Positions 2,500 to 4,177 are shown, numbered from the stretch's first letter. The stretch: 21,669 bases of DNA from a virus (IMGVR_UViG_2529293061_000008), one strand, 5' to 3'. Numbers and translations: made by a program. Notes: a model not told the origin generated them from the letters alone.

Positions 2500-3350
2500 G
2501 CACCATCCTGAAATGGGCAGGAAATAAAACCGCCATAATGTCCGAACTGAAAAAGCATCTTCCTGCTGGCCCGCGACTGGTTGAACCTTTCGCGGGTTCC
2601 TGTGCAGTGATGATGGAGACGGATTACCCCAGCTATCTTGTTGCGGATATTAATCCTGATTTAATCAACCTCTATAAAAAGGTTGCTGCTGATTGTGAGG
2701 CGTTTATATCTCGTGCCAGAGCTTTATTTGAGGAAGCAAACAGGGAGGTGGCTTATTACAACATAAGGCAGGAGTTTAATTACTCCACTGAAATTACTGA
2801 TTTCATGAAAGCGGTATATTTCCTGTATCTCAATCGTCACGGTTACCGTGGGTTATGTCGCTATAACAAGAGCGGGCATTTCAACATTCCCTACGGTAAT
2901 TATAAAAATCCGTATTTCCCTGAAAAAGAAATTCGCGCATTTGCAGAGAAAGCCCAGCGGGCAACGTTTATCTGCGCCAGCTTTGATGAAACGCTGGCGA
3001 TGTTGAAGGTGGGGGATGTGGTGTATTGCGATCCGCCTTATGACGGTACGTTTTCCGGCTATCACACTGATGGTTTCACTGAAGATGATCAGTATCACCT
3101 GGCATCCATTCTTGAACATCGGTCATCAGAAGGACATCCGGTCATTGTTTCTAACAGTAACACGTCTTTGACCCGGTCCCTTTATCGTAATTTCACTCAC
3201 CACTACATCAGGGCGAAACGCAGCATCGGCGTTGCAGCGGGGGAGGGAAAATTTGCAACAGAGATGATTGCCACTAAATCTGCTAATTGGTTTAGTGCCG
3301 ATTTTAGTAGGGGACGTGACTCTACTGTTATTTTCGGGGTGCAAGTGTGA
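2496..3350 (+). CDS. dam: DNA adenine methyltransferase (Dam family)
   Basis: [12 protein letters not shown]-terminus, FAGSCAV SAM-binding motif and DPPY catalytic motif; 284 aa; GGAGGTG RBS. Confidence 0.85.
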
Positions 3351-4177
3351 AAGAAATGCACCACGGAATTCATCATTTCCATGGGACGCCTGTCTGGGGA
3401 AGTGCTGGCGACGTTCATCGTATTGCGGTGAGCGGAGCTGGCGCTTTCGTCTCCTATGTACGACCAGATCAGATTGCGGCGTCCATTCAGCACGCTCAGG
3501 TCGTCGGCATTGATAACGGCGCATTTTCTGCATGGGTGCGTGGGCTAAAAATTAACTGGAGTGATTTTTATAAATGGCTCCTGAACTATTACCACCATCC
3601 TAAGGTCGCTTTTTTTGTCATTCCTGATGTTGTGGACGGAGGTGAACGTGACAATGATGCCCTGATAAACGAAGTTCCGAAAATGTTCTACGGGAAGGCA
3701 ACTCCCGTCTGGCATCTGCACGAGTCAATCGATCGGCTTATCGAGCTATGTCGTGAATGGCCTCGTGTCTGCTTTGGATCGTCTGGTGAATATGCGGCTA
3801 TCAGAACTGCGCACTGGCATCGTCGTATGCAGGACGCTTTTGAAGCAATTTATTGCCGACACAATTTCAAAACAGCTGTTCATGGTTTGCGCATGCTTGA
3901 CGGTCGTGTGTTGGGAAATTACCCACTGGCGACTGCCGACAGTACAAATCTTGCCTGCAATGTCCCCAAATTTAATAGCAAATATCCTGAGCTGACGCGG
4001 GCTATTCAGGAGGCTGAGTATTCGCGCAATCTGACGGAAAAGGAGCTGAAAGCTGTCATTCTGAAAAACCGTTGCGCAATTTTAAAAGGTGCAATTGAAG
4101 CTGTTCGCCCACCTTCAGTTTCTGATTGGCTGTCGAATGGTTTGCAGCCTTCACAGCTCGAACTGGAGATTGCGTAA
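3347..4177 (+). CDS. Uncharacterised protein translationally coupled to dam; possible TGT-fold DpdA-like DNA-modification enzyme (tentative)
   Basis: GTG 3347 overlaps dam stop (GTGA); alternative ATG at 3356. Motif order [32 protein letters not shown] is loosely reminiscent of tRNA-guanine transglycosylase; no zinc motif. Confidence 0.5.

Follow-up and report, generated by a model that had tools for sequence, protein, structure and literature searches.

Location and organization of the gene

The subject of our analysis is an open reading frame (ORF) in a 21,669-nucleotide stretch of viral DNA (IMGVR_UViG_2529293061_000008), referred to below as the window, which spans early and structural regions of a prophage of the P2/186-like (Peduoviridae) kind; this 21.7-kb window is the portion of the prophage that was covered. 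The ORF (3347..4177, plus strand) lies between a dam gene and the replication gene A, and we propose that it is a dpdA gene encoding a singleton phage DpdA, a putative DNA-guanine transglycosylase of the tRNA-guanine transglycosylase (TGT) superfamily. Directly upstream is dam (2496..3350, plus strand), which encodes a D12-class N6-adenine DNA methyltransferase (Pfam PF02086, E 2e-76). Where E. coli carries identical prophages, the NCBI Prokaryotic Genome Annotation Pipeline (PGAP) labels this gene 'DNA adenine methylase'. Directly downstream is gene A (4177..6549, plus strand), encoding a rolling-circle replication initiator of the P2/186 type (Pfam PF05840 Phage_GPA, E 3e-126), which PGAP begins at the ATG at 4177-4179 and labels 'replication endonuclease'.

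The three genes follow one another closely. At the dam/dpdA junction (3336..3358, plus strand) a Shine-Dalgarno-like GGGGTG (3336-3341) precedes a GTG start codon (3347-3349) that overlaps the TGA of dam (3348-3350) in the sequence GTGA, with an alternative ATG at 3356. At the dpdA/A junction (4165..4179, plus strand) a GGAG (4165-4168) is located within the 3' end of dpdA, 8 nt 5' of the gene A ATG, and the TAA of dpdA (4175-4177) overlaps that ATG (4177-4179) in the sequence TAATG. Both overlaps had been described in an earlier reading of the same DNA, which we call the original prediction, and both can be read directly from the sequence, with the caveat that in the NCBI annotation the identical gene starts at ATG 3356, 5 nt past the dam stop, and encodes a 273-aa 'hypothetical protein' (WP_001420002.1) rather than the 276 aa obtained from GTG 3347. 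The choice between the two starts is not fixed because the aligned homologs differ in their N-termini; with either start the gene is tightly packed between dam and A.

The ORF is a real gene and not a chance reading frame. It has 4313 homologs at E <= 1e-5, its relatives at E <= 1e-3 fall into 904 clusters (50% identity), and the ratio of nonsynonymous to synonymous substitution rates (dN/dS) against homologs with 71-81% amino acid identity is ~0.06, a sign of purifying selection.

Sequence family of the encoded protein

A search of the PHROGs database gave a full-length match of the ORF product to phrog_887 ('queuine tRNA-ribosyltransferase') at E 2.4e-96. The same family is matched by the DpdA of phage CAjan (8e-96) and by the DpdA of Salmonella phage 7-11 (7e-74); E. 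coli TGT does not match it. By sequence similarity, then, the ORF product belongs to one family with a genetically validated phage DpdA. A tblastn search of phage genomes returned 105 records, among which SW9 and SEN1, two phages of Salmonella (Eganvirus), were 75% identical to the ORF; there the match abuts the replication gene and carries the RefSeq label 'queuine tRNA-ribosyltransferase'. Lower identities were found for Flyfo siphovirus Tbat1_6 (61%), the DpdA of Pantoea phage MED16 (55%), the lambdoid phage HK106 (38%) and the DpdA of Salmonella phage 7-11 (34%). A direct BLASTP comparison with CAjan DpdA gave E 1e-3 over the motif region (~22% identity, 153 aa). A megablast search of the ORF against the phage collection found no match, and the relatives there were found by protein-level search only.

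Members of this group have already been described. The supplementary data of Hutinet et al. 2019 include the SEN1 protein (YP_009217891) in a list of the 76 phages that carry DpdA without genes for the synthesis of 7-cyano-7-deazaguanine (preQ0) or G+ (PMC6884629). In Simoliuniene et al. 2021 the viral proteins named as closest to MED16 DpdA, which has an HHpred probability of 99.2% to Thermotoga maritima TGT, are SW9 gp39 and SEN1 gp38 (PMC8306585). The original prediction had offered a DpdA-like identity only as a weak one; the phrog_887 match, the presence of CAjan DpdA in the same family and the listing of the 75%-identical SEN1 protein as a DpdA singleton now support it. Both the family and the singleton clade, a P2-like member included, are in the literature; the gene was thus identified correctly, but it does not represent a new system.

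General-purpose profiles were silent. Scans of the ORF against Pfam and NCBIfam, and of 76 relatives against Pfam, gave no relevant match, and the Pfam TGT family PF01702 was not matched even at E <= 1 by the ORF or by any of 76 relatives (E. coli TGT scores 3e-168). Searches of PDB sequences with phmmer and with a profile (hmmsearch) returned chance matches only, such as a coat protein and GCN4 coiled coils.

Predicted structure

An AlphaFold2 model built with 38 homologs has a mean predicted local distance difference test score (pLDDT) of 87 and a predicted template modeling score (pTM) of 0.85. In the model the strands and helices of a barrel alternate to about residue 200 and are followed by C-terminal helices, a predicted TGT-like (beta/alpha)8 barrel. 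A Foldseek search of the PDB ranked Cap10 first (E 5e-5), and the best solved neighbors of the model are Cap10, bacterial DpdA, archaeosine TGT and TGT. Among viral models (BFVD), 31 matched at E <= 1e-3; those that carry a name are phage 'queuine tRNA-ribosyltransferases' with the exception of an ART-PolyVal-like protein at rank 31. The next match, R9TGF0 of Vibrio phage nt-1 (E 1.5e-3), is presumably the DpdA2 of Hutinet et al. 2019.

The zinc motif CxCxxC...H of TGT is absent from the ORF product and from CAjan DpdA as well, and none of the five cysteines of the ORF product (135, 142, 170, 204 and 243) is conserved in the wider family. A TGT-type TIM barrel lacking the zinc subdomain was the architecture originally proposed, and the AlphaFold2 barrel, its Foldseek neighbors and the missing zinc motif bear this out. 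Cap10 is probably the top structural match because both proteins are minimal barrels without the zinc site. The fold evidence corroborates that from sequence and is not independent proof.

The isoelectric point gives no clear DNA-binding signal (7.8 for the ORF product, family median 6.6). We also observed that the C-terminal tail (window positions 4144..4177; consensus roughly GLxPxQLELxIA), which is located outside the barrel and modeled with low pLDDT, is nevertheless conserved among the closest homologs (alignment A1). The constraint on this tail may act on DNA or RNA and not on the protein, since the tail overlaps the GGAG and the start codon of gene A.

Candidate active-site residues

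We aligned 76 diverse relatives, including the CAjan and 7-11 DpdAs, to identify conserved positions. Five residues (D56, H123, H179, D198 and S199) are invariant in all 76, and D94 is Asp in 75. In the model these six residues are located at, or no more than 3 residues from, the C-terminal ends of barrel strands, the catalytic face of the predicted barrel. The four motifs quoted in the original prediction (HGTPVWGS at residues 12-19, two others at 54-63 and 89-99, and CFGSSGEY at 142-149) are all present, and they hold the most conserved residues of the family.

Asp56 (codon 3512..3514, plus strand, as are all codons given here), in the motif IDNGAF at the C-terminal end of a barrel strand, is the candidate general acid/base and resembles the TGT motif TDSGGFQ by inspection. 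Asp94 (3626..3628; IPDVV), which follows strand 87-91, is a candidate base-recognition residue, as is the invariant His123 (3713..3715; PVWHLHES). The segment G144-S-S-G147 (3776..3787; FGSSGEY), located after strand 140-144 and similar by inspection to GGLAVGE of TGT, is the candidate pocket for the 7-substituent; its first residue is Gly in 75 of the 76 relatives. His179 (3881..3883; HGLRMLD) is invariant. Asp198 and Ser199 (3938..3943; TADSTN) are found where the last barrel strand (196-198) ends and are aligned by BLASTP with the motif CDSSS of CAjan DpdA, and Asp198 is the candidate nucleophile. From motif inspection and spacing, the E. coli TGT counterparts would be D89, D143 and D264 (E. 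coli numbering).

The active site of the Salmonella DpdA comprises D95 (acid/base), D130, H181/G182, G206/G207 and D256 (nucleophile) (PMC10164549). The order of residues in the ORF product (D, D, H, glycine-rich loop, D) appears to parallel this enzyme and also Cap10 (D73/S74, D122, H226, D248). The order and spacing of H123 and the glycine-rich motif would correspond to H181/G182...G206/G207 of bacterial DpdA (PMC10164549), and the position of H179, 19 residues before D198, is much like that of H226, 22 residues before D248, in Cap10. The suggested equivalence to D95, D130 and D256 of bacterial DpdA comes from motif inspection and spacing. On sequence grounds the ORF product thus has a conserved pair of putative catalytic Asp residues and candidate base-recognition residues.

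Gene neighborhoods, fusions and distribution of the cassette

Klebsiella phages such as Kp4860-7 are ~96% identical to the window over 82% of its length, and E. coli chromosomes contain prophages that match the dam-ORF-A segment at 100% identity. Comparison with Kp4860-7 by blastn breaks at 3271 and 4252 and defines a variable cassette (3272..4251, plus strand) made up of the 3' end of dam, dpdA and the 5' end of A. This cassette is 980 bp long, against 195 bp in Kp4860-7 (2774..2968 of locus L002), where dam directly overlaps gene A. Among prophages that are ~96% identical, dpdA is a presence/absence cassette. The swap reaches into both flanking genes, replacing ~26 codons at the end of dam and ~25 at the start of gene A, so that the N-terminus of the A protein (gpA) differs from that of Kp4860-7. 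The junction region 3200..4300 was found at >=99% identity in 114 of 5426 complete E. coli genomes (~2%), for example at 942207-943307 of NZ_CP028381.1. In the E. coli carriers listed, PGAP names the gene product 'hypothetical protein', which clashes with the 'queuine tRNA-ribosyltransferase' of its RefSeq phage homologs.

We compared the neighborhood with those at 10 other loci, one in SW9 and the others in nine species genomes. The homolog is directly upstream of a gene A homolog in a 186-like early operon at seven of these loci, and at two Dam is adjacent, one of these (Rosenbergiella metrosideri, L010 5977..7710) being an in-frame DpdA-Dam fusion of 577 aa. A second DpdA-Dam fusion (P0272, 575 aa) is 42% identical over 98% of the Rosenbergiella one, and two other proteins fuse DpdA to an MT-A70 methyltransferase (P0274, 483 aa) and QueD to DpdA (P0209, 335 aa). 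A gene of the Vut_1/YhhQ transporter family (L016 2525..3001, Pfam E 5e-10) is located immediately 5' of the 61%-identical homolog of Tbat1_6, and the annotated preQ0 transporter of CAjan belongs to the same Pfam family. Judged from gene content, these fusions and neighbors tie the family to the 7-deazaguanine pathway and to DNA modification. Another protein (P0348) joins DpdA to a region that, by eye, resembles the C-terminal half of a C5-methyltransferase. Three further candidate fusions were rejected: P0011 (421 aa; Dam fragment and DpdA) and P0273 (568 aa; DpdA and the gpA N-terminus) are ~100% identical to the window and most likely reflect single-base frameshifts or assembly errors at the GTGA and TAATG junctions, respectively, and P0125 (DpdA and GPD) looks like a deletion or chimera.

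The recurrent adjacency or fusion to adenine methyltransferases suggests that the two modifications are used together. The original prediction had paired adenine methylation with guanine hypermodification as an anti-restriction strategy. The pairing gains support from the DpdA-Dam and DpdA-MT-A70 fusions; hypermodification as a means of anti-restriction is less well supported, given the trace amounts of modified base in the nearest tested relatives and the cutting of MED16 DNA by most enzymes (see below).

Proposed function

We consider it probable that the product of the ORF is a phage DpdA of the singleton type. Such a minimal member of the TGT superfamily of transglycosylases would exchange guanine in DNA for a 7-deazaguanine derived from the host and would leave sparse marks. 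Direct experiments on the family are available: deletion of dpdA abolishes 2'-deoxy-preQ0 (dPreQ0) in CAjan DNA, and the dpdA of phage 9g acts on DNA when expressed in E. coli (PMC6884629). Among phages with a DpdA and no preQ0 genes of their own, dADG (2'-deoxy-7-amido-7-deazaguanosine) makes up ~0.13% of G in MED16 DNA by liquid chromatography-tandem mass spectrometry (PMC8306585) and ~0.02% of G in phage 7-11 DNA (PMC6884629). According to Hutinet et al. 2019, a full queuosine pathway is encoded by the hosts of DpdA-only phages other than Clostridium and Mycobacterium (PMC6884629).

We regard the family membership, the predicted fold, the conserved residues, the position in the operon and the lack of pathway genes in the window as shown, and infer the remaining mechanism as follows. 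The enzyme would be produced together with Dam and gpA during lytic replication; expression at this time is probable from the position of the gene within the early lytic operon, in tight coupling with both dam and A. By homology, D198 would attack C1' of the target deoxyguanosine in duplex DNA and displace guanine, with D56 as the acid/base, and the covalent enzyme-DNA intermediate would be resolved by N9 of the 7-deazaguanine base in the double displacement known from TGT, with D94, H123 and the GSSG loop holding the base. The source of this base, which would be either preQ0 or the corresponding amide, 7-amido-7-deazaguanine (ADG), would be the queuosine pathway of the host, as folE, queD, queE, queC and yhhQ were not found in the window, where tblastn with the CAjan pathway proteins gave chance-level matches; the window otherwise carries regulatory genes and the structural module of P2. 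PreQ0 pathway genes are likewise missing from the complete genomes of SW9 and SEN1 (PMC8306585). By analogy, the product would be a few site-specific dADG or dPreQ0 residues per genome, and not bulk replacement, alongside the N6-methyladenine made by Dam. From the densities reported for 7-11 and MED16 we calculate that some 3-23 bases would be modified in a genome of ~33 kb, a number that fits site-specific marking better than bulk protection. The likely benefit would be evasion of some host defense that reads guanine or the mark.

The closest counterparts are the singleton DpdAs of SEN1/SW9, MED16 and 7-11, which belong to the same family, have the same size and are encoded by phages without preQ0 genes. 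In SW9 dpdA is directly upstream of the replication gene, as in the window, and the SEN1 match abuts a replication protein gene; SW9 carries a DUF5405 gene where the window has the dam that overlaps dpdA. The host range of the window phage is E. coli and Klebsiella, whereas these relatives are phages of Salmonella and Pantoea. The DpdA1 proteins of Queuovirinae (CAjan, 9g) share with the ORF product PHROG_887, the D...H...H...DS residues and the lack of a zinc motif, and the chemistry proposed for them, a post-replicative exchange of G for preQ0, is the one we propose here. CAjan and 9g have the full folE/queD/queE/queC set (with yhhQ) and replace 25-32% of G; the window has none of these genes, and replacement in its relatives is at most 0.13%.

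The DpdA found in the bacterial Dpd restriction-modification system of Salmonella Montevideo (PDB 7ui4, PMC10164549) differs in several respects. It has ~410 aa and an Ins8 insertion with a structural Zn site, whereas the ORF product has 276 aa and neither feature; it requires the ParB-like ATPase DpdB and works with DpdC, which makes dADG, whereas the neighbors of the ORF are dam and gene A.

Points against the proposal and alternative explanations

Several results count against this assignment. Sequence bridges to TGT failed in every form tried: beyond the Pfam, NCBIfam and PDB searches, hhalign comparisons of alignments A1 and A2 with E. coli TGT, by itself or together with Zymomonas mobilis TGT, gave probabilities of ~0.1%, and hmmsearch with the A2 profile gave negative scores for both TGTs. 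These failures are uninformative and not evidence against homology, because the profiles on the TGT side were too thin; the link to TGT therefore rests on the structure prediction and on the published HHpred result for the 55%-identical relative. The margin of the model over generic TIM barrels is modest. Gene-dependent 7-deazaguanine in DNA has been demonstrated for CAjan, 9g, MED16 and 7-11, and no P2-like phage is among these. No DpdC or Gat-QueC is present to account for the ADG amide of phages with a singleton DpdA. Mycobacteriophage Orion carries a singleton DpdA and shows no modification at all (PMC6884629), and the phages that are modified are so at trace level, with MED16 DNA still cut by most enzymes tried (PMC8306585). 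Given such traces in relatives, a protective role of the ORF is predicted only and is unproven; with no more than 0.02-0.13% of guanines modified in the nearest relatives tested, a bulk effect against restriction is doubtful.

The Orion case leads to the alternative that we take most seriously, while judging it unlikely: a competent enzyme that has no effect in this particular pair of host and phage, or a protein that does not modify DNA but, for example, excises guanine or binds DNA. Consistent with it, phages ~96% identical to the window do without the gene, which is thus dispensable, the modification of MED16 gave little protection from restriction (PMC8306585), and modification levels in relatives are tiny. 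Orion, however, grows in a host that lacks preQ0 synthesis, while the hosts of other DpdA-only phages, those in the Enterobacterales among them, are reported to have the full queuosine pathway (PMC6884629). Strong purifying selection and invariant active-site residues, together with the retention of an identical cassette in the 114 E. coli genomes, also count against this alternative.

We find it very improbable that the ORF encodes a TGT that acts on host or phage tRNA and not on DNA. The RefSeq and PHROG label 'queuine tRNA-ribosyltransferase' would suggest as much, as would the TGT-like fold. Bacterial TGT has this fold in common with the ORF product and, by inspection, shows similar motifs (TDSGGFQ/IDNGAFS, FDEC/IPDV, GGLAVGE/GSSGEY and FDCV/ADST). 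The label, however, derives from remote homology and not from an assay. In contrast to TGT, the ORF product has no match to PF01702 and no zinc subdomain and is ~100 residues shorter; the family members that have been tested (the CAjan deletion and 9g dpdA in E. coli) act on DNA, and relatives are fused to DNA methyltransferases. The expected substrate of the ORF product is accordingly DNA and not tRNA.

The top structural rank of Cap10, an enzyme of type IV CBASS (cyclic oligonucleotide-based antiphage signaling system; PDB 9ntn, bioRxiv 10.1101/2025.04.06.647259) that has in common with the ORF product a minimal TGT barrel without a zinc site and the conserved Asp/His constellation, is the sole support for a Cap10-like enzyme acting on protein-linked 7-deazaguanine or another non-DNA acceptor, possibly gpA, with the dADG traces of relatives as a side reaction; we give this hardly any credence, since that rank may merely reflect two minimal barrels without the zinc subdomain, identity to Cap10 is ~10% whereas homology by sequence is to phage DpdAs that act on DNA, the fusions to DNA methyltransferases point to a DNA substrate, the family is found also in lambdoid, 7-11-like and Vibrio phages without gene A, and the partners with which Cap10 works in its bacterial defense operon (Cap9 and a cGAS/DncV-like nucleotidyltransferase, or CD-NTase) have no counterpart in the window, where no Cap9/QueC-like or CD-NTase gene was found.

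Returning to a singleton DpdA that modifies DNA, we also considered a more specific proposal, to which we assign a low probability: that the singleton clade as a whole is a sparse, site-specific writer that operates with an adenine methyltransferase, uses host ADG and leaves a handful of dADG marks per genome, and is not a bulk anti-restriction device. In this proposal ADG, which is the QueC intermediate and also the moiety bound by Cap10, would be taken directly from the host, and the marks may mimic the bacterial Dpd self-mark or tag newly replicated DNA for gpA or for packaging.

Early operon and other features of the window

The early genes have the order of the 186-type lytic operon. By Pfam, a CI-type repressor on the minus strand and a small ORF (695..916, without a Pfam match) are followed by CII (CP76) and Fil, and these by DUF5347, DUF2732, a DksA/TraR zinc finger protein and Dam. 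A consensus scan found a promoter-like site, TTGACG-17-TATAGT (594..622, plus strand), which, from the organization of phages 186 and P2, is probably the early lytic promoter for apl-like, cII, fil, DUF5347, DUF2732, dksA-like, dam, dpdA and A. The same scan detected no promoter-like site on the strand of dpdA between 954 and 7400. Shuffled sequence gave promoter-like and terminator-like matches at least as often as the region 400-7600 did, and since such matches occur at chance frequency, a hairpin resembling a terminator (3305-3327) was set aside. The GC profile does not single out the cassette, with 0.47-0.50 for the ORF and 0.43-0.56 for the neighboring early-operon windows (2001-6600).

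Farther downstream, an overlapping gene pair (7511..8425 and 8422..9162, both plus strand) matches the PADLOC candidate defense system PDC-M03. The M03A match (E 2e-122) has a weak HipA_C-like kinase signal and the M03B match (E 7e-93) a HIRAN domain. The pair is found between DinI and the portal gene, where Kp4860-7 carries unrelated ORFs, an interval that we take to be a P2 hotspot for accessory ('moron') genes.

Significance of the assignment

Overall, the interpretation given in the original prediction is supported. With this assignment, a gene whose product PGAP calls a 'hypothetical protein' acquires a name and a function that can be tested; the gene is found at >=99% identity in ~2% of complete E. 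coli genomes and is present also in many P2/186-like prophages of the Enterobacterales. Because these prophages are temperate, inducible and genetically tractable, they offer a convenient system for the questions raised by singleton DpdAs, namely the source of the ADG amide, the target motif and the benefit of a trace mark.

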